In this document: piece after piece, positions 12,401-58,549 of the stretch
How positions within the stretch are numbered: position 1 is the first letter of the stretch
Layout: each line of letters begins with the position of its first letter
Assembly (NCBI GenBank): GCA_036630325.1
Contig: CP142726.1
Location: 682,001-746,000 of the forward strand
Length of the DNA: 64,000 bases
Source of the DNA: Vairimorpha necatrix
Lineage: Eukaryota
Reading direction: 5' to 3'
Position numbers and translations under genes: made by a program
Notes under the pieces: generated by a model
Databases searched by the model: none
What the model was told of the DNA's origin: nothing
The model's input: the letters and a program-made list of their open reading frames with translations, nothing else

Positions 12401-12595
12401 ACGGATGAATTAAAAAATGCACAAATTAAGAATATTGTTGCATATAATACAGCCCAAATGAGGAAACCAAAAGAAATTAAATTAAATATGGGCGATATAG
12501 TAATTATCAAAGAAGAAGGAATAATAAAGAAGGGACAACCTAGATTTAAATTAAGGGGTAAAATTCATGAATGTTTAGAGGGCAATACGTACATG

Positions 12596-33881: not shown

Positions 33882-36189
33882 AAAAAAATTATTAGATTTT
33901 TATGTTTTCTATTATTTTTGACGCAATCCAGAGGAGCTACCTCTGGACAAATATAGTTCTATTAAATTATACGTTTTATTTATTTGATTAAAGCCTCGTT
34001 GGGCATCCGTAATGGGATACTGGTCCCTGGCTCTGAGGCCCTTCCTTGGTCGTGGATTCCAAGGGTATTGATCTTTGTCTTGTCTCATAATTTTGTGTGG
34101 GGGTCAGGGCAAAAAGGAAATAAATATTTGATTTTTGGAATAGACCGGTCGAATGGTCTATTTTCCAAAAAGGGAAAATTGATAAAATAAAAAGAAATAA
34201 TTTGTTGTATTTATAATACCACATTCTACCCCCTCTAAAGTTTAATGTTCTTGACATGTATCCACTCAGAGATTCCATTAACCTTTACCCATTTTCCTTT
34301 GGATCCTAATTGCGTTACCTTTCTCTTTCTTAAGTACTTCCGGTCTAACTTCGTAGCTGTCAAATTCCTTACATATACTTCGTCGCCTAGCCTGAATTTG
34401 GGAGTAGTTAATGTTTTTTTCATATTACGCATTTGTATTGCTCTTTCTAGTGGATCATAGTATTCTTTCCCATTTAACGCAGCATTGGGGGAACATCCTA
34501 TTGATCTATTATAGTTATTATTGATCACCCATTCGCACATATCAATGGCTGTGATTATATTTTCGCCTTTCATTATAGACAGTATGAATGTTATAGTGCG
34601 GTTTACTGACTCTGATATACCATTTGAACTTGGGGTATATGTTGGAACGCGTAAGTGCTTTATGTCCACTTCGTTTAAATATTGTTCAACTTGTTTGCTT
34701 GTATACTGCTTTCCGTTATCTGATATTAGTATTGTAGGTTTAGATTTTGTTAATTCAGTCCAATTGCTGATTGCGCTTATAATCTCTTCTCCTCTTATTT
34801 TATATGCTAAATATAGTTTCGTGTATCGTGTCTTTATGTCTGTTACTGTAATAATAAATCCTTTATTATGCTTACCCGCGTCCTTAAATTTCTCTAAATT
34901 AAATGGACCATATATGTCCGAGCTAATTCTTTCAAGATTGTTTTCAGCTGACATATGGGCTCCTACCTCTCTTTTGACATAAGTTACTTTGTAAGTTTTG
35001 CATTTTCGACAATCATTTACTATTTGTTTGATCCTATGGAATAGATGTGGAACATAAAAAAAATTCTTTAGGTTATTATACATTGTTGTTATTCCTCTAT
35101 GGCCTTGTTCATGATGTATTTTATATAACCAGTGTTTTACTTTATTTGGTTTCATAAAAATTTTTCCGTCTTTATTCATTTTTATCCTTTGATTTTTGTC
35201 CTTTATCATTGCATCTTTGACCATTTTTATGTATCCATCTTCATTGTTTTTGATAATTGTGAAGCATCTCGATAAACTATCTGCAATTACATTTTCTTTA
35301 CCTTCTATGTGTATTAATTTATGGTTAAATTCATTAATGATTAACTTCCAACGACACATTCTTGAGGTTTCTAGTTTCACGTTGTTTAAGCAATTTTTAC
35401 TGTCTGTTCTGACTTCTACAAAATTTCCTTGCAAGATGCCTTTAAAGTGTATGAGTGATAAAAGGATTCCAAGATATTCCTTTTCTACAATACTATAATT
35501 TAGTTCAACCTTTCCAAATTTTTTACTAAAATATCCAATTGGACCATCCTCTTGGTAAAGTACACTACCTATCCCCATATCAGAAGCATCACATTCTAAG
35601 GTGAATGACTTTGTGTAATCTGGGCAGATTAATCTCGCTCTATTTTTAATAAATTCGCTTATGTCCTTAATAATGTTCTTAACATGCTGAGTCGATTCTA
35701 TTTTTGCTCCTTGCTGCAGCATGTTTGTTAATGGGAGTAATTTTGTAGACAAATTTGGTAGGAATTTTCTATACCATCCAATCGTCCCTAATAGTTTTTG
35801 GACATCTCTTTTAGTTTTTAGTCTTCTCTCTAATATTTCTTTAGGAATCAATTTGTTCGCTGGAAACACACCGTCAGCATTTATTGTATTTCCTAGTACC
35901 GTGATTTCATCTTTCATAAAGTTACTTTTTTCAAAGTTTATTTTTACATTTTTCTCTTTGAGTTTGTTCAAAACATTTACTATTAATTTGTTGTGTTCTT
36001 CCTTGGTTTCTGAGAATAATACAATATCATCTGTCAAGTGACAGATCTCCAGTGGTCCTAAGATTACCCTGGAGACTAGAGAATACTATTCTATAAGTAT
36101 TCTCCTCCTTTACCAAACTATGTTTATGGGGGGAAAATGTACAATATTTTCCCGCCTATAAATATAAAAGAAAATCATACCCTTGGGGT

Positions 36190-38205
36190 ATGAAGATGAA
36201 GAACAATAAAAATTATAGTTTAAAACATTCTTCTCGGACTGATGGGAAACCATCAGTCCACAATGGTGGTAACGGTGAAGAGGATTTGAACGATCACTTT
36301 AATAGTCTCATCACGCACATGAAAAAAATATGTCTGAGCAATAGGTGGACAGAATTTAACGGCGAAACTTTAAAACAAGCCGAAGATTTTTTAACTCAGT
36401 TCCGCGAAATTGAGGATGTGTATACGCAAGATAAAACGCTAGATATTGCCAAATCTAAACTTAAAGGCAAGGCGTTAACATGGTTCAAAGCGTTCGAGGG
36501 TGATGAAATTACAGACTATGATTCATTCAAAACCCAGTTTAAAAAAAAGTATTTAAAAGAGAAACTAACAGAAGATATAGCAGATAGGTTCATGCATCTA
36601 TATGTGGAAGGTCCAAAGGAAAGCGACATTTTAAGTTACGCTTATGACCTCAAAAGATATGCAAAAGGAAACCCTGAATATTTTGCCAGATCAAAGATTT
36701 CTATAGGAAGGAACTCCCCTGATAAGTTGAAGGAGCCTATTAAAGAAACGAAAGATTGGTTGGAATTGCTGGAATTAGTTGAGAACAAACAAACTCTTAT
36801 AAATTATCATTTAAACAAAAAGAAAACATTTAGTAGAAAACCATCTTATGAAGCTATCTCACGAGAAAAAAAAGATAATAAAATTTGTGGAGAAAAAGCA
36901 GAACAAGTAAATTCTGCCATGCTTTTAAGGATAGGAGAAATGAAATCGACTACTAAACTACAAGATATCCGCCCGAGGATAAATCTATATTCGGGAACGA
37001 TAAAATTTTCCGCTCTTATTGATACCGGATCTCAAGTGAATCTCATTAGTAAAACAATGATTCAAAAACTGAAATTAAAACCAACAAAAGAAACTCTTAC
37101 GGTTGAAGGAATAGGGGGCCAGTTCAAATCAGGAGGAAAAATACAGGTCTTTATAAAGAGGCCCAAGATCAAGAAAAATGAAATGATCGAGGCTTACGTA
37201 ATAGATAAATTACCGGAAGACTTTATAATTGGCATAGTAGATGCCAAGAAACTAAATCTACTCAAAAGGTTTGATAAAATAGATGGCGCTATAACAACGA
37301 AATCTGTCTGCACAACGGGAAAAATATCCGAAACACATCTAACAGACATTGTAAAAGAAAATTACTTTCAAGAAGGAAAAGAAAAAAGTAATAAACTTGC
37401 CATAGTACATTCGAAGGCTTTCCATATTAAAGACCAAAACTTAAGCTTTAGTAGTAGCAATGTTATAGATGAGCTAAAGTATTGTCCGGAATCTAAGTGC
37501 ATCCAACATAGGAGACCATTAGGTCAAAGGGAAGCGATAAGAGTCAAGCCCAAAGTGCTTTTGAGTAAAATTGGAAAGGAAGAAACTGTATCGACGTTTA
37601 CTCTCCCGGTCGCTCCAATCAAAGCATCTTTCAGTGACATGGTAATTTGTAATGACAAGGGAAAACTTAACAGAAGTAAAAAAAAAGAGTTTTACCCACA
37701 TCCTTTAATACAAAAATTACATGATCCACCCGTATTGACAAACTTTGAATTGAAGTTAAAATACCTACAGCTAAATACCTGGGGGAAAGGCAGAGAACAT
37801 ATACCTCACAAAAAAAGGAGGAAAAAAATTTATAGGGGCAGTATGCTGCCGGAGCTTATAAATAGACAATTTAGATCTATTAAAATGATAAATGGATGGC
37901 GGAAAGACTCCGACGAAAAAGAAATGCTTCGTTATACATCTATCGCTTACTCGCGGAAGAAACCAAGAAATGAAAAGGAAAAAGTTAAAGACAATGTGAA
38001 ATTAAGTGTTCATAGAGTTCGGGACGTAGTACGAAAGCGAAAACCACCGATAAGCATTCAGAAGAAAGGAATTGACAAAATGAAAAAGTCATATACTATT
38101 CCTACGGTTGGAATAGAGGGAGTCTATAAAGTATATAGCCTAAATAATGACGCATTCGCTATTAACTGGAAGTACTTGAAGACGCGTCAACAAATGGTAA
38201 CCTAG
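36190..38205 (+). CDS. Gag-aspartic protease plus degenerate Pol-derived basic tail (671 aa)
   Basis: LKGKALTWF Gag motif, ALIDTGSQVNLIS..DFIIG protease; ATG lies inside the 5' LTR. Confidence 0.9.
   Translation: MKMKNNKNYSLKHSSRTDGKPSVHNGGNGEEDLNDHFNSLITHMKKICLSNRWTEFNGETLKQAEDFLTQFREIEDVYTQDKTLDIAKSKLKGKALTWFKAFEGDEITDYDSFKTQFKKKYLKEKLTEDIADRFMHLYVEGPKESDILSYAYDLKRYAKGNPEYFARSKISIGRNSPDKLKEPIKETKDWLELLELVENKQTLINYHLNKKKTFSRKPSYEAISREKKDNKICGEKAEQVNSAMLLRIGEMKSTTKLQDIRPRINLYSGTIKFSALIDTGSQVNLISKTMIQKLKLKPTKETLTVEGIGGQFKSGGKIQVFIKRPKIKKNEMIEAYVIDKLPEDFIIGIVDAKKLNLLKRFDKIDGAITTKSVCTTGKISETHLTDIVKENYFQEGKEKSNKLAIVHSKAFHIKDQNLSFSSSNVIDELKYCPESKCIQHRRPLGQREAIRVKPKVLLSKIGKEETVSTFTLPVAPIKASFSDMVICNDKGKLNRSKKKEFYPHPLIQKLHDPPVLTNFELKLKYLQLNTWGKGREHIPHKKRRKKIYRGSMLPELINRQFRSIKMINGWRKDSDEKEMLRYTSIAYSRKKPRNEKEKVKDNVKLSVHRVRDVVRKRKPPISIQKKGIDKMKKSYTIPTVGIEGVYKVYSLNNDAFAINWKYLKTRQQMVT
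36264..36291 (+). promoter_or_regulatory. PBS of element A (tRNA-Leu-like, extended and interrupted)
   Basis: TGGTGGTAACGGTG-AAGA-GGATTTGAAC resembles the complement of a eukaryotic tRNA-Leu 3' end through the T-loop. Confidence 0.6.
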
Positions 38206-40753
38206 GAGCCTTTAAAGAAGGGGGGAGTGTCAAGTGACAGATCTCCAGTGGTCCTAAGATTACCCTGGAGACTAGAGAATACTATTCTATAAGTATTCTC
38301 CTCCTTTACCAAACTATGTTTATGGGGGGAAAATGTACAATATTTTCCCGCCTATAAATATAAAAGAAAATCATACCCTTGGGGTATGAAGATGAAGAAC
38401 AATAAAAATTATAGTTTAAAACATTCTTCTCGGACTGATGGGAAACCATCAGTCCACATCATCTATGTACACAAAGCAGTTATCCACTTCGTGTAATATT
38501 TCAGTGATGTATCTTTGGAAAATTTTTGGACCCGGTTTAATGCCAAAGGGTATTCGTTTGTATCGGTATTGGGCTCCCATAATCATAAATGATGTCAAGT
38601 CTCTGCTTTCTTGCTGGATTTTAATCTGGTTGAATCCGTTCTTAAAATCTATTTGAGAAAAGTACTTATTTCTTCCCATCCTTAGTATACAGTCATCTAT
38701 TTTTGGTATTGAAAAAATGTCATCTTCGATGTGATCATTTATCTCTTTAAAATTTATGACCAGTCTTAATTCACCAGTTTTCTTTTCGATAAAATATCCT
38801 GGGCTTGCGAAAGTTGCTCTAGACTTCTCTATAATATCTTCATCAAGTAATCTTTTAACCTCTTTTCTTGCTCTTTCATAATATTTGAAAGCTATATTGT
38901 AGAATTTATGTCGCGTGATATTCAACTTCTTTATAACCGTAAATCGAGCTTCATCCATTTTCATAGAGTAAAATTTATCATTTAGTTTCTTATAATTTTC
39001 AAGGTGTGAAATATAAATTTCCTTCGAAGGAGACACATAAAGTAAATTGTTAAATCGTTCATTTAACATCTCATCCGTGTTTGGTATCGCGTCCATAAAG
39101 GGAATTTCTTCATTGTTGATAACAAGTGATTGGTTAGCAAAATCAATTGTAGCTTTATTCTTCCTTAGCCATTCAGATCCTAGTAGTAAATCGACGGGGC
39201 AATTTTTAATAATATAGAATTCAATATCCATGATAATATTTGGAGACAACCTTATTCGTATTCTAGCTTTAGTGTTAATCATTCTTTCATCTCCATTTCC
39301 AAATATAGTAGTGAAGGGCTGACACGGTTCAGCTATATGATCATTCATGTTGACCACTTGTTCACTCACAAAATTCAAGTGTGAACCTGTATCGATTAAC
39401 AATAAGTAATTATTTGAGTCTAATATTCCTATTATTTTTACTTCTTTCTGATTACTTGTTGTTCCTAGCTGAATAACCATATTATTTCTTTTTGTTTTTT
39501 CTTCAAAATGTATCGTTTTATCTTTAGTATCTTTGAGATTGTTCCGAAGTCTACAATCTCTTGTATTGTGCGAAAAGCTCTTGTGCACACTACAATAAGG
39601 ATTTCTTGATTTGCAAATTTTGCTTGTTTCATTAGGTACATATCCATTCTCGTTTCGTCTTCCTATTTGAGAAATAATAGTTGATTCTAAAGTCTTTAGA
39701 TAAGCAATAACGTCTGAAGTGGTCCGCGTATTAACCTCATTTTTGCAAAGTTCCATCTCAGTTTGTTTACCTAGTCCTCTAAAAAATACTTCTGAAAATT
39801 TTCTCTCAGCTTCTTGCTTAGTTAAATTATTTGAGAAACTGTAGGCATCTAACTTTTGGGAAATATTCTTCACATAATCTTCCAGATATATGTGGTTGCA
39901 CTGCCTAACATCTTCGAGCTCCTGTGCAATTCTAAATCTCATGTTTCTAGGATAGGCAATTTCTAGTAATGCCGCTCTTAAATTTAAGTATGATTTACTA
40001 TACTTGGCGTTTAAAAAGTGATCGCCAACTAACATGGTCCCATATATTCTTCCCATCTGCTCATCATTCCAGCCATTGGCCTCTGCTAGATTCTCAAATT
40101 TCTGTAGCTCCACCATTGAAATTTCTGATGGTTTTTTAATAATTTTTATTTTTTCTTTACTTATCACATCTGTTCCAGTGATCTTCATGTCGAATTCTCT
40201 GTATTCGAACATGGAATTTCTATCTTCGTAATTACTATTTAATTCGTCTTTGAATTCAAAATGACGCAATCCAGAGGAGCTACCTCTGGACAAATATAGT
40301 TCTATTAAATTATACGTTTTATTTATTTGATTAAAGCCTCGTTGGGCATCCGTAATGGGATACTGGTCCCTGGCTCTGAGGCCCTTCCTTGGTCGTGGAT
40401 TCCAAGGGTATTGATCTTTGTCTTGTCTCATAATTTTGTGTGGGGGTCAGGGCAAAAAGGAAATAAATATTTGATTTTTGGAATAGACCGGTCGAATGGT
40501 CTATTTTCCAAAAAGGGAAAATTGATAAAATAAAAAGAAATAATTTGTGGTATTTATAATACCACAATTTTAAATTAGTTTTTTATGTTTATGATCATTT
40601 TGATACTTTTTCTATTTTTTAATTTATTTAGTGATATAAATATAGTAATATTCAAATGCTATATTGCACAATATTTATGATCCATACAAAAAAAAATTTA
40701 AATTAAATATGTATATCATAAATATACCCTTAAAAAATACATATTTCAATTTT

Positions 40754-40972
40754 TCGGTGAATTTGTAGTCGGTGAATTTGTAGTCGGTGAATTTGTAGTC
40801 GGTGAATTTGTAGTCGGTGAATTTGTAGTCGGTGAATTTGTAGTCGGTGAATTTGTTGTCGGCGAATTTGTTGTCGGTGAATTTGTTGGTCGGTGAATTG
40901 ATTTTCGGTGAATTGATTTTCGGTGAATTGCTGTCGGTGAATTGATGTCGGTGAATTGATGGTCAGTGAATT
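40754..40972 (-). repeat. 14-15-bp tandem array in right TIR of the Mutator element
   Basis: About 15 units of GTCGGTGAATTT.., the reverse complement of the left array. Confidence 0.92.
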
Positions 40973-41377
40973 CTCCATACACCAACTGCTATGTTGATTC
41001 TATGGCTTTTAAACTGCATATGCGATCTATTGTGGTCTTTAAATCTATGATTAAAGATACGAAAAGTACAATAAAGCCGATTTTAAAAGTACAAAACCAT
41101 CTTTTCTCTTTTATTTTTAAAAAAAACCAATATCCAAAAATTGATGATTTTTACATTACATCATTTAAATTTTTTTCAATAGCTAATTATCTAGAAAAAA
41201 TTAAGTATTATTCCTATTATAAATAAAATTTCACATAATTATTTCTCAAATAATCTTAGATTCGTTTATTGAATACCAGAGAATAATAATGATGGAAAAA
41301 AAAGAGATAATATTTTATGTTGACTTACAATATAACTTAAAAATTTAGACCAACAGCAGTAATAAAAATTTTATTTA

Positions 41378-42100
41378 TTACCATACAGATGCTAAAAAGT
41401 ACGCTATTAAAGGAATTGTAAAATAAATAAAGTGCAAGGTTCTTTTATGCGGCCATTTAGGTGTTATTTCCTCATTTTCATCAAACAAGGCCGAAAAATT
41501 GAATTTTCGGAAATAACAACAGCGCATATAATAAATGAGTAGTTGATAATCAGTTTTTTTAAAAATTTGTTCAACCTGCAAATTGTTTACTTTATTCATC
41601 ACTATATGACAATAGTTTTTGAAGATTCTTTTTAACATATTCAAATCAATTTTTATGATATTATAATCAACACGCATGAGCTCTTCATGTATTAACTTAG
41701 TCTTCTTAGCGAAAGAATATACCAAATTATAAACAGCCAATTGCTTGCCAGTACGTGCTTTTTCATCGCAGTTTTCATATAAAGCATTCATAAATAAGTC
41801 AAATTGTATGTCTTCTCTATTAATTTCATATTCTTCTTGGTTAGGTTCTTTTGGCCAACTAAGCTGACTTTTTAGGGGAAATGTCGTTTTTTCTAACAAT
41901 GCGTCAAATAATATCTTTAAGCTTTTTTTTTCATGATCCATATTATTTATTTTACAGTTATGCAGTTTTTCATCTTGGGATTGTACTTTAGTAAGTTGAT
42001 CAACATTCATTGTTTCTTGAGTCAATATCCCAGTATAATTCTTAACGGTAGCTTTTATTTTCTGTATATTTAGAATGAATAATACCATAATTAAAAACAT
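41378..42100 (-). CDS. Family-2 protein: signal peptide plus C-terminal TM (240 aa)
   Basis: CCCC upstream, hydrophobic N- and C-termini, FD.L.E..TFP.K.Q.SWP..YEI motif shared with 51185 and 62564. Confidence 0.85.
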   Translation of the reverse strand: MFLIMVLFILNIQKIKATVKNYTGILTQETMNVDQLTKVQSQDEKLHNCKINNMDHEKKSLKILFDALLEKTTFPLKSQLSWPKEPNQEEYEINREDIQFDLFMNALYENCDEKARTGKQLAVYNLVYSFAKKTKLIHEELMRVDYNIIKIDLNMLKRIFKNYCHIVMNKVNNLQVEQIFKKTDYQLLIYYMRCCYFRKFNFSALFDENEEITPKWPHKRTLHFIYFTIPLIAYFLASVW

Positions 42101-42589
42101 CTTATGGGGTTGAAATTATTTTTTTTATTTATAACAAAAAAAAACTAGCTTAAGCTTTAACGTTTTGAAAACGAGATATATGTAATCGCGAATTGAATCG
42201 ACAATTTGTTTAACCATTTTTTTAGAAAATTATTGTTCGGATTTTAATTTAACAACAATAAAAATTAAATTTTAGAAAAACTCAAATTAATGTGATATAA
42301 AATGCTCTAAAAATTCAGAATGATGACTTTATTTATTTTAAAAATATTTTTAAATCTTTTGATCGAAATCTTTGATTTTAATTAACTGTGGAAGATTTTG
42401 ATAAATTAAAAATGATCCTAACGACATTTAGGAACTGAGTTTTAAAAAAATATAAATCTAAATTTTTTCTTTTATATACGCAATTAAAATTATCAAATTC
42501 TACCATTAAATCTATATTTGTTGTTACTTTACAAAAAAAACATTAAACACTTCGTTAAAAATACATAAAACAGATAAGGAAAAAATTGA

Positions 42590-45500
42590 ATGAATAAATA
42601 TAAAGAGATATCATATGAGTTTAGATTTGAACTTTTTCTGCTCAACATAGCGAACACAAATGAAGAAGAGCAACAAGTCAGACAAGAGTTCAGGGGAGCT
42701 GAAAATTATTCAAAGAAGCTAAGAGAGTTGAAGCGATTTAAAGAATTCGGGGAGAAGCAAAAGAAGTGCACTTAAGCAGTCGTCAAAACAAGCAAGTATT
42801 GAACTGCAGGATCAAATTTTCGAATAATTTTGGAGTACGGAAGATTGGGAGGATATTAATGATGAAATTTGAAAATTAGTCTAAGAGGAGGAAGAGAAGG
42901 AAAACAAATAAAAGATAATGAAGAAAGAACTGGAAGATAGGGTAGAGATGATGAAAGAAAAAATAAGAAGGGAGATATTAGGAGCAATGATCAGAAGAGT
43001 GGCAGTATCAGGAAGAAATTTTTAATATGAAAAATTGAAAGAAAACCATTGTTTCATATGTAGAAGAATTAAACATATAGCTGGAAGTTGTATGGAGCAT
43101 AAAGAAATACAGGAAGAGGATGATTGAAATAAGAGTTTAAAATTTTTTGTATATGTAATATAGTAAAATGAAAATTTTGGAATTAAATGACTTTAAATTT
43201 AGAATCGTAGTAGAGGCAAAAAGAGAAAACACAAAAAACAATTTTTATGTGGGAAATACAAAACAAAATGAAGAAAAAAATATTAATAATCTTAAAAATT
43301 GGAAGGAAAATTTATAGAAATATTAGGAAAAGACGAGAAGAAAATAATTTGCTTAGCAGAAGGAAAACATTCTAGTTTTATAAAACAACGAGTAAAGAGT
43401 AATTAAAAGGAGACAACATTCCTATAATCTACGTGAATTGTTAGAAAATTAGGAGGCGAGGTACCACAGTACCCCACATTTGAGGGTGTTTACTTTATTT
43501 TTTCGAACCCCAAAAACGAAGTGCAAAATAAAGGAGGAGCAGGAAGGGGACAAAAATTACTAAGCACTTATGATATTAAAAATAACAAATAAATACATGC
43601 TTTTATTCAAAATTTAATTTTAAATTTAGTTATAATAATCATTTATTGTGTTGTATCTTTTTTGCCCTTCTTATTTTTTCCATTTTTTTTTAATTGTTGG
43701 TTTATTATAAAAGTAGATTTTCTTCAAAAATCTACTTTTATAATAAACCAACAATTAAAATTATAAATATTATTTATATAAGAAAATTTAAATAAATGTT
43801 CAACGATCTATACAGATTGTTAAATCAAAAAATTTAATTTAAAATATGTTAAGTTATTTAGAATTATATAGTTTTATGGTTATATTCTTTTTTTAAATTA
43901 AATTTCGTATACAAATATATAATTATTTGGTATTTTTACTGTTTAAAGATGCAAGTACTTTGAGTGCTAATGATTGCTTCTCCTTTATTTTGCACTTTGT
44001 TTTTGGGGTTCGAAAAAATAAAGTGAACACCCTTGGAGGGGGGCGTGTTGGTCCCCAATTCTAATAAATCAGAAGGGTAAAAAATGCTTGTTAATTTATA
44101 TAAGTGTAAAAACTTGTATTAAAATATGATTCTGTACATAAATATATATTTATTTGTTATTTTTAATATCATAAGTGCTTAGTAATTTTTGTCCCCTTCC
44201 TGCTCCTCCTTTATTTTGCACTTCGTTTTTGGGGTTCGAAAAAATAAAGTAAACACCCTCAAATGTGGGGTACTGTGGTATCTTTCACCCGAAAATTATA
44301 TAAATTTATTAGAAAATAGAGGAATTATCAGAACAACAAAGAGTGGGGGGAGGCCCATTAAGGGCTATGAAAACCTAAATAAAGATGTGAGATTAGGAAT
44401 TAATTTGATGGCCTTTAACAAACTTGTTGAAAAGAATCCGTATGAATTGCCATTGATTAGAGACATTATTAGGGCAACGCAAGGTTTTAAAGTATTTACG
44501 GTTATAGACCTAAAGGAAGGATTCTATCATATAGAAATTGAGGAAGCTCACAAACATAAGACAGCTTTTGAGATAAATGGTAGAGTATACGAATGGAATA
44601 GCATGGTTATATGATATAAAAACTATCTCCATATTATGCAAAGAGTGATATGCGAAATTTTAGATGAGATTAGAGGCAAATGTGTTGAGGTGTACATGTA
44701 TGATATTATAATTCATGCAAGAGATAGCAATATACACGATAATTTATTAGAACAAGTAATTCAAAACCTAAAGAATTTGGATTAAAAGTAAACTCAAGAG
44801 AAGAAGCAAAACTGCTAAGAATAACGATTAACGGAAAAAAAATTAAACCAAACAAAATAAAAAGCATGAGACAAGAAAACAAAAGGCCCAATAACATATA
44901 GAGCTTAGATGATTTTGGAGGCTAGCAGGCGGGTTTAGAGATTTTAGCCCTCATTATGCTTATCGGACATCAAGACTTAAACAAGCTCGAAAAAATATGT
45001 TAAATGGGCATGTTCCGAAGATATAGAGATAGCTTTTATTGATATCAAAGAGGAATTAGAGATATCTAAAAATTAAAAATAGCAGACAGTAAAATCGGAC
45101 GCATGCGATACAGAAATTAGCCATACTATTACATGAAGATAAGAAAGGCGGATACCAATAAAATGGGCATCGAAAATGAAAACATCAGCAGAAAAAAAGA
45201 TATGCAATTAGTGGAAAGAAGATGTTGACTGTGTTATTTGGAATTTAGAATTCGAGACAGATATGTGAAGAGAAAATTTTATTTATTGAAAGCATAAAGC
45301 CCTGGTCGAGATTAGAAACAACCCGTTTTCAACATAAACTGAAATAATAATGGATAGAATATATACAAGAATTCGACTTCACTATTGACTATGTAAAAGG
45401 AGAGCCGATTACGGATGTAGATGCTCTTAGTAGACAATTTGAAAATAACGAAGTATAAGAAAAAAGCGAAAGAGAGAAACAGACCCAAAAACAAATAAAA

Positions 45501-45730: not shown

Positions 45731-45741
45731 GTATGTAATAT

Positions 45742-48071
45742 TGTTGTAGACTGTATTTCTACAACATTTATTTTATTTCACTCCCTGTCAAATCTATCAT
45801 TGAATTTTCTAGAATTTTATTTGCTATAAATAAAATTCTAGAAAGGAAGGGTACAGAAGGAAGATGGAGAGACAAACACAAGGAGTGTGTAGACATAGCA
45901 ACAAGACAGCTATGAGAGAGTCCAAAGGGACGTTTAAAAATAAAGGGCAATATATTAATTCTATTTTAGAGTGGTACTTTATCACCGGGAGAGCTTCCCC
46001 GGGATACCACAACTTGAATTCAAGAGCGAGTGTAGGAGTACCAAGTGCGAGTACAAAATTACTAATGAATGATAATAAAATTAATCATGGTGAAGTAAAC
46101 CAAAAGAAAATAAAATTAAGTTACACTATTCCAGGAACGGAATTTAAAATTGAAGAAGAACTGAATATTATAGAAGATATTCAAAAATTTGATATGTATG
46201 AATGGTTTAAAACATTTGAGAAGATTACCACAAGAAACAAGTGGAATTCGGAGCAATATGAGCTCATACTAAGGGATTTGATTTCGGACAAATCCTTAGA
46301 CGATAAAATATTTAAAGGAGATTTAATGAAAATACAAGAAAAAATCTTTAGTTATGTATACAGCGTGAAGAAAGCTGAAGGATGGATTAAGAAACTTGCT
46401 AATGCAAAACAAGTAGATTTTGTAACCATCAAGGAATACTATGAGTACATTAATAAGTACGTTAAATATTATAGTCTTGCATATAAGATAAGCAAGGACG
46501 AGTACAACAGAAAATTATGGGAGTACTTTAAGAACGGGTTAGGTGAAAACACTAGAAGAAAATTAATTGATAATATCAATGTTCACAACCTTGAGGAATA
46601 TATGAATAAATTGTTAACGATGGAAGAAGAAATACTTAATTTAAATAATCCGAGAAATGATTCAAGAAAGTTCGAAACATCTGAACGAACACATAAGAAC
46701 AATTCCTTTTCAATACAAAAGAAGTGGTGCAGATACCACAAGCACAACGGACATAATTCTGTTGATTGTTTCATGAATAAAGAAAAAGGAAATCAAAACC
46801 ATAGGGATTTACCAAGAAGAAATGAAATGAATGTCATGGAAGAAGAAAAAGACAACATTAGAGAAATGGTTGTTAGAGCGAATATTAATGAAAGTAACGT
46901 GAACATTTTGTTAGACAGTGGAGCAAGCAGAAGCTTTATATCTGAAGGATTAGCTAAAAGATTAAATTTAAAGCTTAGAGAAAACAAATCTATAAGAACG
47001 GTTATAGCCAATGGAGAAGTAATTACCACTAATATGTCAACCGAATTAGACTTTAAATTTGAAGGAGTAAGCAAGAGTTACTCTATTGAACCATACGTCT
47101 TTGATAGATGCATGTATGATGTGATTCTAGGCAGCGATTTCTTGTTTAACAACAATTGCATTTTAGATTATAAAAATAAGGTAGTTATTTGTGACGAGAA
47201 GATTGTCAAAATCATTGGGTATGAAGAGGTGGCGGAAAAAACATTGGACGAAATAATGATTGAAAGACTATGCGTAGTGGAAGATGAAAAAATTGAAAAT
47301 GAAGATCATAATAAAGTAAATAATTATACAGCCAAAACGAAAGATAGTAATGTGAAATTTGGTAGGAATAAACATAAGAAAGAAAGAAATACAGTGTTTG
47401 GAAAACAAAATTGGGTTAAAAAGAATAAAAATAAGAAAGTAGTAACAGAATGTAAAACTGGTAAAATTATTAAAGATAAAACAAAAGATCAGGTTAACCC
47501 TGTAGTAAAATATCGAGATAAGATTTCAAAAATAAGATTTTATGATCCTTATAAAGGTAAGGTAATTTTTAATGCATCAGATCGGCCAAGAAAGAAAAAG
47601 ACCAAGATAAAAATGTGTAAGCAGAAAAATAAGGTCGAAGTTCTATTCTATGCGAGGAACTTCTCGACAAACAAACTTAATAAAAAATTTATAAGTCCAT
47701 ACAGGGCGAATCTAAAGAAAAAAACTAAATTATGGTATAAGGTATATGGACTAGCAGGATGGGCTCATAGGAAATAGTAAAAGTTTTGAGAGGGGGCAGG
47801 ATGTTGTAGACTGTATTTCTACAACATTTATTTTATTTCACTCCCTGTCAAATCTATCATTGAATTTTCTAGAATTTTATTTGCTATAAATAAAATTCTA
47901 GAAAGGAAGGGTACAGAAGGAAGATGGAGAGACAAACACAAGGAGTGTTTAGACATAGCAACAAGACAGCTATGAGAGAGTCCAAAGGGACGTTTAAAAA
48001 TAAAGGGCAATATATTAATTCTATTTTAGAGTGGTACTTTATCACCGGGAGAGCTTCCCCGGGATACCACA
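45742..48071 (+). mobile_element. Non-autonomous Gag-protease LTR element C (2330 bp, 270-bp LTRs)
   Basis: LTRs 45742-46011 and 47802-48071 (1 mismatch seen), TSD AATAT, PPT GAGAGGGGGCAGGA. Confidence 0.96.
45864..47777 (+). CDS. Gag-aspartic protease plus basic tail ending in integrase C-terminal remnant (637 aa)
   Basis: CRYHKHNGHNSVDC knuckle, LLDSGASRSFIS..DVILGSDFL protease; homologous to element B Gag-PR; no YxDD. Confidence 0.9.
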   Translation: MERQTQGVCRHSNKTAMRESKGTFKNKGQYINSILEWYFITGRASPGYHNLNSRASVGVPSASTKLLMNDNKINHGEVNQKKIKLSYTIPGTEFKIEEELNIIEDIQKFDMYEWFKTFEKITTRNKWNSEQYELILRDLISDKSLDDKIFKGDLMKIQEKIFSYVYSVKKAEGWIKKLANAKQVDFVTIKEYYEYINKYVKYYSLAYKISKDEYNRKLWEYFKNGLGENTRRKLIDNINVHNLEEYMNKLLTMEEEILNLNNPRNDSRKFETSERTHKNNSFSIQKKWCRYHKHNGHNSVDCFMNKEKGNQNHRDLPRRNEMNVMEEEKDNIREMVVRANINESNVNILLDSGASRSFISEGLAKRLNLKLRENKSIRTVIANGEVITTNMSTELDFKFEGVSKSYSIEPYVFDRCMYDVILGSDFLFNNNCILDYKNKVVICDEKIVKIIGYEEVAEKTLDEIMIERLCVVEDEKIENEDHNKVNNYTAKTKDSNVKFGRNKHKKERNTVFGKQNWVKKNKNKKVVTECKTGKIIKDKTKDQVNPVVKYRDKISKIRFYDPYKGKVIFNASDRPRKKKTKIKMCKQKNKVEVLFYARNFSTNKLNKKFISPYRANLKKKTKLWYKVYGLAGWAHRK

Positions 48072-48081
48072 AATATTAATA

Positions 48082-50389: not shown

Positions 50390-51184
50390 CATTTTTTTGA
50401 ATACCGGCCGTCTTTGGAGAAGCTTAAAATATTTTTTCCATTAAAATTTATTAGCTGGACATTCTAAAAATTTATATGTTAGGGAATACACTCCAAAAAA
50501 TAAATTATCATTTTTTGGCATGGCACAAAATTTTATACGTGAATCCAATAGCTCGGATTTATATTTCTATCTAACATTAGGTCACTTTTCTTATCACTAT
50601 ACCAAAAATACTTTGCTTGTTTTAAGAATTGTTTTAAAAATTAAGGACTGGAATTTTCACATGTAACTTGTTTTTGATATGCAATCTGTATGATATACTT
50701 GTTTCTAATAATCCTAAAGGTTTCTGAATTTTCTAGTTTTTTATAAAGATAACATTTTTTTTTATGCAAAACATAGTACTTAAGTTTTTTTCACAATAAA
50801 AGATACGGGAAAACTAGAATTCCTATAAATCTTCCAATACCTTAGAAAGTCTATAAAAAACGACCTTATATGTTACTATGTCCGAAATTGAACTTTGGTG
50901 CAAAATAAATCTTTTTATAACGTTGTTATATTTTTGTACGAATTTACAGTATAAACATTTACAAATCTATTTTTGTATGAATTGGAACAACTGAAATGCT
51001 ACTCAAATAAAAAACGGTAAATGCTATATACGTTGTGTCTTCTAAAAATAAAAAATTTTAAGCTTAGTTTATTTGTAGAAATTTTAAATCTTTTATTCGT
51101 TTTATTGACTAAAAATTTTGTAGAAATAGATGGAGAATATATGCTCAACATTGTTTATGATAATAATAAGCAAAATTTTTAAAA

Positions 51185-51901
51185 TTAAAAATTTATTTCG
51201 CACAAAAAAAAAAGAACGACAAGCAATATTGTTACCTGAACAATATGTAGAAATATAGAACGTCTATACCTAGACATACGATCGTTCGTATTTTTAATAA
51301 CATTGTGGCATATATTAAGTTGTTCAATACTTTTCGTAATTTCTTTATAGTCATTGTTTATAAAAACCTGCTCAAATATCAAATTATTCTCAGCGTTTAA
51401 TTTTATATTAACGGACATTTTAATTATATTTTCAATCTGTTCAAAATTAAGATTTTCATAAATATGATTTCTGAATAGTATGTCACTATGCAATTGCTTT
51501 GTTTTTTCAGCAAGATTAGATAGCATTAAACGAACAGCTTCTTTTTTACCACTATGTACATTTTCATCCTTATACCCATGTAAAGCATCCATATAAAAGT
51601 TAAAATCCATATCTTTTTTTTGAATTTCATATTTTTCATCGCCACACTTCGATGGCCAACTACTTTGCATTTTTATAGGAAAAGTCACGTTTTCCAATGA
51701 GCTGTCAAACATTATCTTCATTATTATTTTTGATTCATTTATATCACAGTCCATTTTGCTATATCGGTCGTTCATTGCAGGGAGCATTTTATCGCTTGCC
51801 TCATAGGCTTTATTTATTTCTTTAGTTGATGTACTTGCACTATTTTCGCTGGTAGCTACTAGTCTTTGCATATTTAAAATTAATACAGGAGTAAAAAACA
51901 T
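51185..51901 (-). CDS. Family-2 protein: signal peptide plus C-terminal TM (238 aa)
   Basis: CCC upstream, intact ORF, paralogous to 62564..63253 and 41378..42100. Confidence 0.87.
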   Translation of the reverse strand: MFFTPVLILNMQRLVATSENSASTSTKEINKAYEASDKMLPAMNDRYSKMDCDINESKIIMKIMFDSSLENVTFPIKMQSSWPSKCGDEKYEIQKKDMDFNFYMDALHGYKDENVHSGKKEAVRLMLSNLAEKTKQLHSDILFRNHIYENLNFEQIENIIKMSVNIKLNAENNLIFEQVFINNDYKEITKSIEQLNICHNVIKNTNDRMSRYRRSIFLHIVQVTILLVVLFFLCEINF

Positions 51902-52407
51902 CTTATAGGGTGCGGCATAATTTAATTTTATAGAAAAATTAAATTTTAATTTACAAGTTTGATCATATTTTTAGAAAATATCTATTATATAAATTTAATG
52001 TTTATTGGTAAAACAAGTCTTACTAAATTTTCTGATTAAAAAAATGAATCTTTATCATTTTTCTAATCTTTTGAATTTCATTTTATGTATGAGAATGTAA
52101 TAGAATAGATAAACAAAATTATTTATTTTTTAATAACTTTTATATGTGAAAACATATTGCAAAACTTTACTTTTGGCTTTATTTTTTTTGTTATCATTGT
52201 ACTATTAATTTTATTCTAAATGTGTCCTTGGTAAGTCTTCCGACAATAACTACTACAGTGCTGATTAAAAGAAATGGTTTATTTGCGTCACTATATTAAA
52301 AATTTTGCAATATTTTAATATATACAAAAAATGGATAAATATCAACATACACAAGGTCTTCGTAATTGTTAACTTTCATATGTCAGCTGTTGTACTCAAA
52401 ACTTTTT

Positions 52408-55400
52408 TTTTATTATAAAACATGTTTTTAATGATTTAATCAATTTAAAATATCAAATGATATTTAATCTATCAGTATAAAAATTTATACTTTAACACTC
52501 TACCTTCTTTCAAAAAATAAATTTTTTATATTTCTTAATCTTGAATTTATAATTTTCTCATTTGTTAGCTTTGTTTGGGCAAATCCAAATTTCATCAAAA
52601 CAACAGTTCCTTTGAAAGTATAATCCGCTTATTATTTATGTTCTTTTTCGATAGGATGGTGATACAAATTTTTTATCACACCACTTGAAGTTCATCTTGA
52701 GTCTGATTTCTTTTACGTTTGCAATAACTTGTTTTGTAACGTTAAAAAACCCCTTTGCCGTTTTGACATTTTTTATATGACATATCCTGTGGCGAGCAGC
52801 CTATTCCGCGGTAAAATGAGTTAAGATATCCATCCAAAGTCTTACCTATGCATTTTTCCTTGTCTATCCTTCCAAAATTTAATACTTTTTTCAGCTTCTC
52901 TACGTAAGTCCGATTAAATCTCTCTACTTATCCCGTAGTCGTCGGAATTTAAAGTGCTCCTAGTCTTCATTCGATTTTGTAGTTCCTAGATAACTCTTTT
53001 ATAAATTAATTTACGAATGATATTTCATTATTCGAAATTTTAATCTTTGGTACTCCGTTTTTATGATGGTTTCTCCGATTCCTCTAAGCGTTTCGCCGGC
53101 ATCTTTTGCTCATAACAATATTATGTTCGCTACCTTTGAAAAGTGATCAATTATCGAAAATATATATTTACATTCCTGTTGGCTTTAGGGTAGTGGGTCT
53201 ACTATGTGTATCTCCCATATTTCATTTGGTTATTCTAAAATAATCGAAATAAAGCTGTTTTTTATATAGTAAGATCTTATTTGTTGACATTATAGACACT
53301 TTTTTATGTTTGCGCGTCCCCATTTAAATTTTTTATTTTGTTTCTCGTAAAACGTACATCGTTGCTTTCTTTAATCCGTGAGCTAAACGACCGTGCAATT
53401 TGACTAAATTTTGTCACGTGTTTATATTCCTTTACGTTATTAATTGTTTCCCCATCATTCTACTCAATCAATCACTTGGGTTACTGCTCATTTAATATCC
53501 TCGATTGCCATATCATATTTTTTTAAATACAATGCCATCTTGCAAACTTTGTTTTTATGTTCGTATTATTTTACAGGTGCTTTATTGCACTATGAGATGT
53601 TTTAAGTAATTTTTTCCCTATTAGATAATGTCTATAAAGGTCGGTTGTATTAATCTCCGCAAGTAACTCTTTCTCGGTCGTCGAATAGTTTTTTTTTCTG
53701 TCTTTAAATAACTTTCAAATAATAACATATGATTCTTTCTTTTCATCTCTGTGTCTGTGAGAATATTGCACCTGATCCAAGGTCTAAAGCATCGGTCGTT
53801 ATAATAAATCTTTAATTTAAATTCGACATTGCAAGCATTTAGAATTAAACTGTGTTTTCTTAAACAGTTCGATAACTTTTATGTATTTTTTTTGATGATT
53901 AATTTCTTCTAGTCGACGTCTACCTTCTTTTTATAAGCCCATATAAATATGCCGTCTCCTTTGATTCATTTTTTATAAATTTACTGCAATAGTTGATTGT
54001 ACCTAAGAAAGATCCTAACTCTTTTCTGTTTCAATGAATTTTAAGGTCTTAAATAGTTTTTATTTTTTCCGGATCAATCCTTACTCCCCTCAATAGCTAA
54101 TATGTGAATTTGTCTTTTTTCATATTCGCATTTTTTCTTGTTAAGCTTCAATCTTGCCAGGCCAATTGGTTCCAACACCTTCCTGGCATGTTCCTTGCAT
54201 TTAATAACGATTTGCTTTATATAATAAAATCGTTTATATAAGCCATAGCAAATTTCCTAAATATGGCTTCGATATTATGTTCATCATTCTCTGGAATGTT
54301 GCCAGTGCGTTTACAAGACCAAACGGCATGTATAAGAATTCGTAGAGTTCGCCTCCGCATGCATACATAGATGTTTATATATCTATTTAATTCATTTTGA
54401 TTTGGTGGTGCCCAGAGAGTGCATCCAGTTTAGTTGATAAGGTCGCTCCATGAAATGAACCAATATTTCATCTACCCGGTGCATCGGATATAAGTCTTTG
54501 ATGTTATTTTTATTGAATTTTTTGTAATCAACACATGGTCTAAAGTCATCATTTTTTTCTTTGCATATCTACTGGGCTTCGCCACAGGCTATTTGATTCC
54601 CTTATAATACCTCTTTTAAATACTGTTGGGCAATCTTTTTTGCTTTCTTTTCTACTTCATATTCTAATCTGTAACAGGCATTAGTTATTGGTGGGTATTC
54701 TTTTTTGGATTCTTTGTTCTCCGAGCTTATTCTTTTCCGTGCTCCCTTTTGTCTATTCGATGATCTGTATCAAATAAATTTAACGTTATGTTTTCATGGA
54801 AAATTTAGTCCTATGATCATATTAGAAGTAATGTCATTCTTTACCACAAATTTTCTTATGAAAACTTTTTTCTTCAATCATAAACACTTGTTTTATCACT
54901 TCTAAAGTCTTGATTTTTGTACTATTGGCCGATATGAGGCCTTTTGTCGATTCTAATACCTTATTCACTACTAATTTCCATTGATTGAATTTACACATGC
55001 TCCAGAATCGACTAATGCTTGTATTATAATATCTCCAATTTTTATTAAAACTGTAAGGTCTTTGTTACTCGTTTGTCCGAGAGATCGAACACAATTGTAA
55101 AAATCAAGAGTTTATTTTTGCCAATTTCATCATTCTTTTCCAAATCATTTCCGATTTTCTACTATTTCATTTTTCACGGTCTTTTTTAAAATGTCCCTTT
55201 CTACCGCAGTACCAACGTTCCTTACTATTTTGCAATTTGCAGACCTCCATCAAATCCTCTTCAAGCTTTTGAGGAAGCGTCCTATATGTTCTTGACCTAC
55301 TGCTGCAATCCAATCTCTTACATGCATTATAAATATAGCCCAAATATCTTCTGTAGGTGTATCATTAGTAGTATACCCCAATATCGTCAGGTAATTAGTC

Positions 55401-55800
55401 CATTCAAAACGAATGCAATCAGCACATTATCTGGGAGTCGGGCTTTAATTGCAAGCCTTTCCATTTGGTCAGGATCTAGTAAAATAAACCTTCTGAGTAG
55501 AGACATCTTGCCAAATTTTTTATGTGTCCGACGCTACTCAACATTCCTTTAAATCTTCTTAAAAAACGCTTCACATAGCGCTATAAAGCCGCAGTTCCAT
55601 GACACTGATTCTGCTCAAATTGTTGAATTCCCTGCTAAATGATCTTTAAAGAAATATATTTTTCCCTTTTCACCACAATTGGCTATCGTTGCACATCCAA
55701 TTACGTATGCCAAGAAAGCACCGGGATAGTCGTCTTTACTATTTCTAAAAGTTTTTTTTGTTTGCTGTTGCCGCCAAATTGTTATTAGAAAACATAGGTT
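52408..55800 (-). mobile_element. Heavily degraded Gypsy element H
   Basis: Minus-strand remnants LDALSGHHQIKM, YMPFGLVNALATFQRMM, TDALDLG, IIDHFSK. PBS-like TGGCGGCAACAGCA (55763-55776); PPT next to a ~90-bp 3' LTR starting at 52497. The 5' LTR is truncated by the MITE end at 55801. Confidence 0.78.
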
Positions 55801-56123
55801 GGGTATAGGATACTTTAGACCCCCCCCCCTTTGAAGCGCTTCGATTTTTTTTTCGAACCCCAAAATTGAAGTGCAAAAAAATAAGAGGAGCAGGAAGGAG
55901 AAAAAATTTAAGCACTTATTACATTAAAAATAACAAATAAATATATGCTTTTATACAAAAATAAATTTTAGATTTAGTTATAATAATCATTATAAGTATT
56001 GTATCTTTTTTCGCCCTCAATATTTTTTCATTTTTTTTCATTGTTGGTTTATTATAAAAGTAGATTTTTGAAGAAAATTTGCTTTTATAATAAACCAACA
56101 ATGAAAAATATAAATAACGTTTA

Positions 56124-58549
56124 TGTGGACTGATGGTTTCCCATCAGTCCGAGAAGAATGTTTTAAACTATAATTTTTATTGTTCTTCATCTTCATACCC
56201 CAAGGGTATGATTTTCTTTTATATTTATAGGCGGGAAAATATTGTACATTTTCCCTCCATAAACATAGTTTGGTAAAGGAGGAGAATACTTATAGAATAG
56301 TATTCTCTAGTCTCCAGGGTAATCTTAGGACCACTGGAGATCTGTCACTTGACACTCCCCCCTTCTTTAGAGGCTCCTAGGTTACCATTTGTTTCGCGTC
56401 TTCAAGTACTTCCAGTTAATAGCGAATGCGTCATTATTTAGGATATATAATTTATAGACTCCCTCTATTCCAACCGTAGGGATAGTATATGACTTTTTCA
56501 TTTTGTCAATTCCTTTCTTCTGAATGCTTATCGGTGGTTTTCGCTTTCGTACTACGTCCCGAACTCTATGAACACTTAATTTCACCTTGTCTTTAACTTT
56601 TTCCTTTTCATTTCTTGGTTTCTTCCGCGAGTAAGCGATAGATGTATAACGAAGCATTTCTTTTTCGTCGGAGTCTTTCCGCCATCCATTTATCATTTTA
56701 ATAGATCTAAATTGTCTATTTATAAGCTCCGGTAGCATACTGCACCTGTAAATTTTTTTCCTCCTTTTTTTGTGAGGTATATGTTCTCTGCCTTTCCCCC
56801 AGGTATTTAGCTGTAGGTATTTTAACTTCAATTCAAAGTTTGTCAATACGGGTGGATCATGTAATTTTTGTATTAAAGAATGTGGGTAAAACTCTTTTTT
56901 TTTACTTCTGTTAAGTTTTCCCTTGTCATTACAAATTACCATGTCACTGAAAGATGCTGTGATTGGAACGACCGGGAGAGTAAAGGTCGATACAGTTTCT
57001 TCCTTTTCAGTTTTACTCAAAAGCACTTTGGGCTTGACTCTTATCGCTTCCCTTTGACCTAATGGTCTCCTATGTTGGATGCACTTAAATTCCGGACAAT
57101 CCTTTAGCTCATCTATAACATTGCTACTACTAAAGCTTAAGTTTTGGTCTTTAATATGGAAAGCCTTCGAATGTACTATGGCAAGTTTATAACTTTTTTC
57201 TTTTCCTTCTTGAAAGTAATTTTCTTTTACAATGTCTGTTAGATGTGTTTCGGATATTTTTCTCGTTGTGCAGACAGATTTCGTTGCTATAGCGCCATCT
57301 ATTTTATCAAACCTTTTGAGTAGATTTAGTTTCTTGGCATCTACTATGCCAATTATAAAGTCTTCCGGTAATTTATCTATTACGTAAGCCTCGATCATTT
57401 CATTTTTCTTGATCTTGGGCCTCTTTATAAAGACTTGTATTTTTCCTCCTGATTTGACCTGGCCCCCTATTCCTTCAACCGTAAGAGTTTCTTTTGTTGG
57501 CTTTAATTTTAGTTTTTGAATCATTGTTTTACTAATGAGATTCACTTGAGATCCGGTATCAATAAGAGCGGAAAATTTTATCGTTCCCGAATATAGATTT
57601 ATCCTCGGGCGGATATCTTGTAGTTTAGTAGTCGATTTCATTTCTCCTATCCTTAAAAGCATGGCAGAATTTACTTGTTCTGCTTTTTCTCCACAAATTT
57701 TATTATCTTTTTTTTCTCGTGAGATAGCTTCATAAGATGGTTTTCTACTAAATGTTTTCTTTTTGTTTAAATGATAATTTATAAGAGTTTGTTTGTTCTC
57801 AACTAATTCCAGCAATTCCAACCAATCTTTCGTTTCTTTAATAGGCTCCTTCAACTTATCAGGGGAGTTCCTTCCTATAGAAATCTTTGATCTGGCAAAA
57901 TATTCAGGGTTTCCTTTTGCATATCTTTTGAGGTCATAAGCGTAACTTAAAATGTCGCTTTCCTTTGGACCTTCCACATATAGATGCATGAACCTATCTG
58001 CTATATCTTCTGTTAGTTTCTCTTTTAAATACTTTTTTTTAAACTGGGTTTTGAATGAATCATAGTCTGTAATTTCATCACCCTCGAACGCTTTGAACCA
58101 TGTTAACGCCTTGCCTTTAAGTTTAGATTTGGCAATATCTAGCGTTTTATCTTGCGTATACACATCCTCAATTTCGCGGAACTGAGTTAAAAAATCTTCG
58201 GCTTGTTTTAAAGTTTCGCCGTTAAATTCTGTCCACCTATTGATCAGACATATTTTTTCCATGTGCGTGATGAGACTATTAAAGTGATCGTTCAAATCCT
58301 CGTCACCGTTACCACCATTGTGGACTGATGGTTTCCCATCAGTCCGAGAAGAATGTTTTAAACTATAATTTTTATTGTTCTTCATCTTCATACCCCAAGG
58401 GTATGATTTTCTTTTATATTTATAGGCGGGAAAATATTGTACATTTTCCCTCCATAAACATAGTTTGGTAAAGGAGGAGAATACTTATAGAATAGTATTC
58501 TCTAGTCTCCAGGGTAATCTTAGGACCACTGGAGATCTGTCACTTGACA
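56124..58549 (-). mobile_element. Second copy A' of the Gag-protease LTR element (2426 bp)
   Basis: Identical LTRs 56124-56354 and 58319-58549, own TSD GTTTA. Confidence 0.96.
56382..58391 (-). CDS. Gag-protease plus Pol-derived basic tail (669 aa)
   Basis: Near-identical to 36190..38205 and fully open; a 1-nt indel alters only the last few residues. Confidence 0.9.
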   Translation of the reverse strand: MKMKNNKNYSLKHSSRTDGKPSVHNGGNGDEDLNDHFNSLITHMEKICLINRWTEFNGETLKQAEDFLTQFREIEDVYTQDKTLDIAKSKLKGKALTWFKAFEGDEITDYDSFKTQFKKKYLKEKLTEDIADRFMHLYVEGPKESDILSYAYDLKRYAKGNPEYFARSKISIGRNSPDKLKEPIKETKDWLELLELVENKQTLINYHLNKKKTFSRKPSYEAISREKKDNKICGEKAEQVNSAMLLRIGEMKSTTKLQDIRPRINLYSGTIKFSALIDTGSQVNLISKTMIQKLKLKPTKETLTVEGIGGQVKSGGKIQVFIKRPKIKKNEMIEAYVIDKLPEDFIIGIVDAKKLNLLKRFDKIDGAIATKSVCTTRKISETHLTDIVKENYFQEGKEKSYKLAIVHSKAFHIKDQNLSFSSSNVIDELKDCPEFKCIQHRRPLGQREAIRVKPKVLLSKTEKEETVSTFTLPVVPITASFSDMVICNDKGKLNRSKKKEFYPHSLIQKLHDPPVLTNFELKLKYLQLNTWGKGREHIPHKKRRKKIYRCSMLPELINRQFRSIKMINGWRKDSDEKEMLRYTSIAYSRKKPRNEKEKVKDKVKLSVHRVRDVVRKRKPPISIQKKGIDKMKKSYTIPTVGIEGVYKLYILNNDAFAINWKYLKTRNKW

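Follow-up and report, generated by a model that had tools for sequence, protein, structure and literature searches.

What kind of element moves with a Gag and a protease but without a working polymerase, and is the long open tail behind its protease a working part or a remnant? This question is raised by two closely similar copies of a long terminal repeat (LTR) retrotransposon, here called family A, in a stretch of 64,000 nt (contig CP142726.1, positions 682,001 to 746,000, forward strand) that we refer to as the window. The copies, A1 at 36032-38458 on the plus strand and A2 at 56124-58549 on the minus strand, are 98.76% identical over 2427 aligned columns. An earlier note on family A, based on the letters and a program-made list of open reading frames (ORFs) only and made with no database searches, had described them as mobile Gag-protease elements with a gutted but still open Pol. 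We consider it probable, at roughly 0.75, that family A is a non-autonomous Ty3/gypsy-type LTR retrotransposon descended from an ancestor with a single frame for Gag, protease (PR), reverse transcriptase (RT), RNase H (RH) and integrase (IN), a type of element common in microsporidia.

Both copies carry what defines an LTR retrotransposon, namely direct repeats beginning with TG and ending with CA, and a short target-site duplication (TSD). The two 231-nt LTRs are 100% identical inside A1 and inside A2, and they differ between the copies at one base, where both LTRs of A1 read G and both of A2 read A (alignment columns 129 and 2325); a base shared in this way within each copy is the product expected of one round of reverse transcription. 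The TSDs are 5 bp long, TCATC in A1 and TAAAC in A2 (element orientation; GTTTA on the plus strand), and the flanks of the two copies are unlike. Both insertions are further supported by empty sites. A1 interrupts an autonomous-type Ty3/gypsy element, H, exactly behind the YxDD box of its RT, and in silico excision of A1 with one copy of the TSD yields a single open frame across that box, a result obtained only with a 5-bp TSD. The flanks of A2 have an uninterrupted paralogue within the window, in which the 5-mer is present once. The description in the earlier note of two copies of about 2.43 kb, with different TSDs and with LTRs identical within and different between copies, is therefore borne out, as is its claim that each retrotransposed independently.

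The location of A2 in a region of segmental repeats could suggest that the copies arose by DNA duplication, or that they are chance LTR-like repeats. Shared flanks, which the same note had named as the sign of such an origin, were looked for, and the flanks were found to differ, as do the 5-bp TSDs; the paralogous repeat without the element, the closing of the RT frame of H upon removal of A1, and the diagnostic base common to both LTRs within each copy all speak against it. We regard this origin as refuted and give it almost no weight.

If all of the 1.24% divergence between A1 and A2 had accumulated after insertion, about 2.9 LTR-LTR differences would be expected per copy, while none is seen in A1 and none in A2 (P 0.003). 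Because the differences within copies are so far below expectation, the two lineages must have diverged while replicating, and A1 and A2 are independent, recent retrotranspositions of lineages that separated while active. The differences between them form a mosaic: the initial 1039 nt contain 4 and the 1157 nt that follow contain 24, the break lying near 37071, within the protease (p 3.9e-4; random placements, 0 of 500). Synonymous sites mirror this pattern (0 versus 7 across the break), which suggests recombination between subfamilies. No further family A copy or solo LTR occurs in the 64 kb of the window. The putative primer-binding site (PBS), TGGTGGTAACGG, is confined within the window to the two copies, and the window contains no tRNA gene with which it could be compared; as for self-priming, no complement of at least 7 nt of the post-LTR sequence was found in the LTR of A or H.

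The single ORF of each copy encodes a Ty3/gypsy-type Gag and a retropepsin, both recognized by Pfam (Table 1), with a Ty3_capsid match below the Pfam cut-off. In A2, a 1-base deletion five codons ahead of the A1 stop alters the final residues. No zinc knuckle (CCHC or CHHC) was found in the Gag. The equipment of an autonomous LTR element, that is an RT with YxDD, an RNase H and an integrase with HHCC and DDE, is missing from family A: the Pfam families for RT, RNase H and integrase gave nothing at E ≤ 1 in either ORF, a Pfam search with the tail alone (residues 351-671) gave nothing at E ≤ 10, and the ORF contains no [YF]xDD, DAS or HHCC pattern. The ORF had been described beforehand as open over about 670 aa, with an intact-looking protease and no YxDD, TDAS or DDE, and this agrees with the 671 and 669 aa in which Pfam detects Gag and protease only. 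An AlphaFold2 model of the whole ORF, built from a two-row alignment, was unusable, with a mean predicted local distance difference test score of 28 and the protease itself unfolded, and a comparison of the tail with solved structures by sequence gave chance-level matches only (E ≥ 0.45).

Judged by profile comparison, the 321-aa tail contains two Pol relics in their proper order, the start of RT and the C-terminus of integrase. The profiles for both were home-made, from nine full-length relatives of element H. Residues 80-190 of the tail obtain 9.7 bits with a hidden Markov model (HMM) of RT domains 1-3, a value that none of 3000 shuffles attained; when whole tails were used, the score of A1 was equalled by 1 of 3000 shuffles and that of A2 by 9 of 2000. 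The alignment of tail and RT by hhalign (P 0.0064) spans 98 collinear columns, corresponding to ORF residues 439-536. Two matches at E ≤ 0.001 were obtained with phmmer when the tail was compared with 1.84 billion proteins, one of them a plant Ty3 Gag-PR-RT fragment that aligns at the RT start (E 5.4e-4). These methods converge in placing the same stretch of the tail on the same region of RT, a stretch that covers IQHRRPLG..., ICNDKGKLNR, EFYPHPLIQKL and DPPVLTNF. The integrase C-terminal profile matches the last ~70 residues over nearly the full length of the domain, at 13.1 bits in A1 (1 of 2000 shuffles as high) and with 0 of 2000 shuffles as high in A2.

The ordered mosaic of Pol relics that had been read by eye from the tail is in part confirmed by these results: the RT start and the integrase C-terminus are recovered in the right order, whereas the relics of the connection and of RNase H are not. 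The peptides quoted for it are all present in A1, between residues 438 and 664, but EFYPHPLIQKL and YKV are altered in A2. DPPVLTNF, which had been assigned to the connection, falls within the hhalign alignment to RT domains 2-3. IAYSRK, which had been assigned to RNase H, lies in a region whose score against RT domains 4-5 was equalled by 2872 of 3000 shuffles, a result that also leaves unsupported the resemblance, noted by eye, between YTSIAYS and the YxDD box; with the Pol HMM, no RNase H or integrase-core signal appeared in any frame of the tail DNA. Similarity of the tail to Pol profiles was accordingly found for RT domains 1-3 and for the integrase C-terminus, but not in Pfam. In the ESM Atlas, 29 of the 30 named matches to the tail are RVT_1 clusters (top score 0.93). 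Since residues 537-671, which exclude the RT relic, likewise draw RVT_1 clusters (0.85), we count this result as a lead only, one that is possibly driven by composition.

How might such a frame have come about? The Ty3 elements of microsporidia are described as having one polyprotein ORF (PMC4202319), and when the ancestor has a single Gag-Pol frame, an in-frame internal deletion yields a fused frame of the family A type. We propose that one large in-frame deletion of ~1.6 kb (roughly 520-570 codons), together with small indels and decay, would have removed the palm and thumb of RT, RNase H, and the zinc finger and catalytic core of integrase. The surviving frame, translated to about the place of the ancestral stop, would comprise the Gag, a protease that looks intact, the decayed first part of RT and the C-terminal domain of integrase. 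The distance from the DTG of the protease to residue 581 (YTSIAYS) is 304 aa, compared with 308-315 aa from DTG to YxDD in relatives, so that a single large deletion plus small indels suffices and the several in-frame excisions that had been suggested are unneeded. In the cycle that we envisage, the RNA would begin within the 5' LTR, a short way ahead of the ATG at 36190, would be translated as Gag-PR-tail and would be packaged, presumably by a Gag that is still functional. RT and integrase would be supplied in trans by an autonomous relative, reverse transcription would be primed at the tRNA-type site and at the polypurine tract, and integration would generate the 5-bp duplication.

Several observations weigh against this account. 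The RT relic is weak, at 9.7 bits compared with 93-148 bits for real RTs, and Pfam RVT_1 is blind to the RT-start stretch. When the lysine-rich linker is kept in the HMM, 47 of 3000 shuffles match the score of the tail, and semi-global pairwise alignment of the tail with seven N-terminal halves of RT gives a z of only 0.10. The second phmmer match is an unrelated repetitive protein with an E of 4e-4, so the threshold is soft. Such decay of RT without a stop in 321 codons is, moreover, hard to square with pure drift. An autonomous parent or helper is absent from the 64-kb window, and H, the sole intact-looking autonomous element there, has other LTR ends and another primer-site sequence. Word-based protein searches, made with the entire ORF and, among longer proteins, with Gag-PR, gave no match, although low-complexity words may have crowded out relatives, and scans of metagenome contigs (by protein and by LTR pattern), genome contigs and viral contigs brought up no relative of family A. 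A helper with matching LTR ends and PBS, the partner sought in the earlier note, was found neither in the window nor in the scanned collections.

Family A is present, at about 99% identity, in two public runs (X1 and X2). Contig depth over the LTR bins reaches 3600-5100 in X1 and 90-144 in X2, versus about 70 and 6-20 for the internal region, figures that are contig-based and can be taken as a hint only. In the contigs of these runs, LTR variants are joined to different internal sequence, and there are further internal 3' ends with a similar polypurine tract; in X1, variants of 80-90% are numerous and again adjoin other internal sequence, and the elements there that have the LTR in common are abundant, at a depth of about 600 and more. 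LTR variants joined in this way indicate that LTR-sharing relatives of family A exist, and both the end of the tail and the LTR appear, from these contigs, to be common to other elements. The final 650 nt of the internal region (37572-38227) have a contig depth of 288 in X1 versus 70 elsewhere, four times deeper. For metagenome runs X3-X6, uncovered parts and small shares were given no weight, and no RNA run was listed among those containing family A.

The most striking property of the tail is its openness. Not one of its 321 codons is a stop, whereas 12-32 stops occur in each of the other five frames, and none of 20000 composition-matched shuffles is open. The tail may therefore be a working protein part under selection, as had been proposed, serving in nucleic-acid binding in place of a zinc knuckle, in docking to a helper Pol or in interference with the helper. 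The RT relic has decayed to its present score without acquiring a stop, and the Gag of family A lacks the knuckle that family B and elements H and E1 possess, while its tail has a net charge of about +39.5. Family B, a second Gag-protease LTR element of the window, is unrelated to family A, its Gag-protease being related to that of H (E 3e-22), and yet it likewise retains an in-frame basic tail that ends in an apparent integrase C-terminal relic (its last ~46 residues match the profile, with 0 of 2000 shuffles as high).

The substitutions between A1 and A2 point the other way. In the tail there are 14 non-synonymous (N) and 4 synonymous (S) changes, a ratio of non-synonymous to synonymous rates (dN/dS) of 0.89 that does not differ from 1 (p 0.77), compared with 4 N : 3 S and a dN/dS of 0.33 in Gag plus protease. 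By hand calculation, the likelihood of the data is 5.9 times as high under neutrality as under the dN/dS of Gag-PR, and the probability of at least 14 non-synonymous changes among 18 at an omega of 0.33 is 0.054. The integrase C-terminal relic itself shows 3 N : 1 S, and the frameshift in A2 alters the last residues. Pooling with variants of the two public runs gives 12 N : 9 S for Gag-protease (p 0.022 versus neutrality) and 15 N : 6 S for the tail (dN/dS 0.63, p 0.41), partial counts taken among 40 of 213 run variants listed; the higher density of change in the tail between A1 and A2 is confounded by their mosaic pattern. As 5.2% of point mutations in the tail would make a stop, zero stops are expected 39% of the time with 18 tail substitutions, so that two copies say nothing on stop avoidance. 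In the tail of family B, for its part, an RT relic is absent (its score is matched or exceeded by 1316 of 2000 shuffles), and although two unrelated families have arrived at a similar layout, in-frame retention in both has a chance of about 1 in 9. Amino-acid selection on the tail is not supported by these data, and we consider a working tail unlikely. The argument from deep divergence without stops does have some force; it depends on weak homology and on a parent that has not been recovered, and we keep it as a rival, in the form either of a functional tail under loose constraint or of selection for an RNA that is read to its normal stop.

A different explanation, to which we assign the same low probability, is that the frame stays open for the sake of the RNA: an early stop would create a longer 3' untranslated region and an unstable genomic RNA, and only copies that are read to the original stop would spread. 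An open frame with free amino-acid change fits this idea, as does the end of the frame, which lies within a few codons of the Pol end of relatives, separated by 8 nt from the polypurine tract and by 22 nt from the 3' LTR, and the only frameshift seen sits five codons from the end. The sequence pattern expected under this idea is, however, the one that a functional tail under loose constraint would also produce. Slightly more doubtful again is the idea that Gag-protease satellites of single-ORF elements need a translated basic tail ending in an integrase C-terminal domain, which would replace the zinc knuckle in RNA binding or hook the satellite particle to the Gag-Pol of the helper. If true, it would account for the stop-free layout of Gag, PR, tail and integrase C-terminus that two unrelated families share within a window of 64 kb. 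We return to the descent of family A by deletion from a single-ORF element: the tail looks like a mostly drifting remnant, and the best reading of its unbroken frame is that a deletion in frame gave rise to it and that weak selection against premature termination, or else its young age, has kept it open, not that it encodes a conserved domain.

Table 1. Positions of family A features and of related elements, numbered from the first letter of the window.
Feature	Position	Strand	Details
A1 TSD, left copy	36027..36031	+	TCATC
A1 5' LTR	36032..36262	+	231 nt, TG..CA
TATA-like run in A1 5' LTR	about 36157-36168	+	
Gag start codon of A1	36190	+	inside 5' LTR
Inverted repeat in A1 5' LTR	36236-36259	+	10 nt with GAAA loop; read directly off the sequence
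A1 putative primer-binding site	36264..36275	+	TGGTGGTAACGG; one base past 5' LTR; TGG start compatible with tRNA 3' CCA end
A1 single ORF	36190..38205	+	671 aa, Gag - protease - tail; ORF list, Pfam
Gag part	36190..36939	+	residues 1-250; Pfam Retrotrans_gag at residues 86-137, E 2e-6
Aspartic protease	36967..37233	+	residues 260-348; Pfam Asp_protease_2 at residues 269-348, E 1-2e-7; DTG at residue 278
Post-protease linker	37240..37500	+	residues 351-437; no similarity detected (1338/3000 shuffles equal its score)
Probable decayed RT-start relic	37501..37797	+	residues 438-536, domains 1-3; profile scores; conserved RT positions gone
Very basic stretch	37798..37971	+	residues 537-594 (58 residues), contains IAYSRK; no origin assigned
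Probable integrase C-terminal relic	37972..38202	+	residues 595-671 (domain match ~595-663); profile; ends near ancestral Pol stop
A1 polypurine tract	38214..38227	+	AAAGAAGGGGGGAG; directly adjoins 3' LTR
A1 3' LTR	38228..38458	+	same as 5' LTR
A1 TSD, right copy	38459..38463	+	TCATC
A2, whole element	56124..58549	-	LTRs 56124-56354 and 58319-58549; TSD GTTTA at 56119-56123 and 58550-58554
A2 ORF	56382..58391	-	669 aa
Paralogous empty site for A2	43700..43850	+	uninterrupted; 5-mer present once
Element H, host of A1	33919..40566	-	autonomous-type Ty3/gypsy, Gag-PR-RT-RH-IN in one frame; LTRs of 305 nt, 1 mismatch; TSD AAAAT
Family B	45742-48072	+	Gag-protease LTR element; 270-nt identical LTRs; TSD AATAT; 637-aa ORF; CHHC knuckle; basic tail

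The window as a whole has 28% G+C and many mobile elements among compact uninterrupted genes, in which SMC-like, kinesin-like and aldo-keto-reductase-like frames were labelled by eye. The nearest named relative of the H polymerase comes from Nosema granulosis, at 45% identity, and on these grounds we take the genome to be microsporidian-like. E1, a further Ty3/gypsy element at 9320-13553 on the plus strand, has terminal repeats of only 79 nt, and its start codon, like that of family A, falls within the repeat. Its post-LTR sequence is of the TGGTGG type, gag and pol are separated by an in-frame stop, and more stops precede the integrase part. Just outside the 5' LTR of H lies a tandem array (40739-40949) of about 14 copies of a 15-nt unit that decays toward its 3' end. 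Two families of paralogous frames of about 200-260 aa are present, one at 41378-42115, 51185-51970 and 62564-63301 (minus strand) with hydrophobic ends, and the other at 28-642, 2698-3402, 5183-5725 and 16612-17346 (all on the minus strand). A segmental repeat links 48.7-52.7 kb with 61.1-64.0 kb at 83-98%, and the plus-strand frames at 22983-23822 and 33180-33881 are, by eye, candidate remnants of IS-like and MULE-like DNA transposases.

With families A and B side by side, the window offers a small and tractable system in which to ask what a satellite must keep. Single-frame elements make Gag and Pol in a 1:1 ratio, and a Gag-protease satellite could shift this ratio in its helper, acting as a competitor or a modulator. 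There is also a risk for annotation, as frames of 670 aa may be taken for host genes or may escape transposon searches based on RT.

Among known systems, the single-ORF Ty3/gypsy elements described from microsporidia (PMC4202319) resemble family A, as H does, in having one polyprotein frame, a 5-bp TSD, TG..CA LTRs and the same protease family. Unlike both, family A is without RT domains 4-7, RNase H and the integrase core; no similarity could be detected between its Gag and that of H, and its primer site is of the TGG type, while H and family B share another post-LTR sequence. Searches of the literature on microsporidian and Nosema LTR elements and on fungal non-autonomous gag-protease elements, supplementary element lists being outside their scope, listed no account of an element of the family A kind in microsporidia. 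The BARE-2/BARE-1 pair of barley, as presented in PMC4350172, parallels what we propose for family A, since a defective element is there mobile via the proteins of a partner, but BARE-2 is its opposite in having lost Gag and kept Pol.

TR-GAG elements, characterized by Chaparro et al. 2015 (PMC4350172) as elements of less than 4 kb with LTRs, a PBS, a polypurine tract, a 5-bp TSD and one GAG-only ORF, often with no traceable partner, had been named in the earlier note as the nearest analogue, and this is a fair comparison alongside the plant elements that retain both Gag and protease. Like them, family A encodes neither polymerase nor integrase in its one ORF, bears signs of having been active recently and has yielded no autonomous partner, and at 2427 nt it has their size and structure, the primer site being putative. 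It departs from them in that its ORF adds a protease and a 321-aa tail with probable Pol relics, and in its host, as TR-GAG elements are known, in that account, from plants and one alga. The GAG/PROT-retaining category, in which Gag and protease are present and polymerase and integrase are absent or decayed (PMC13570524), accommodates family A better. As set out in that source, a survey of sugar beet counted 28 non-autonomous families with GAG/PROT only and 15 with partly decayed Pol domains, and such plant elements share with family A the LTRs, the Gag and protease, the lack of a working RT, RNase H and integrase, and often the lack of a traceable autonomous partner. Family A differs from them in its AT-rich, microsporidian-like genome, in its length of only 2.4 kb, and in having Gag, protease and both probable Pol relics in one unbroken frame that runs to about the original stop. 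Family A belongs to this known GAG/PROT-retaining, non-autonomous kind, for which its host group is new, and it shows that satellites keeping Gag and protease, so far reported mainly from plants, also emerge and remain active in a genome that is compact, AT-rich and of the parasite type and whose elements use a single frame.

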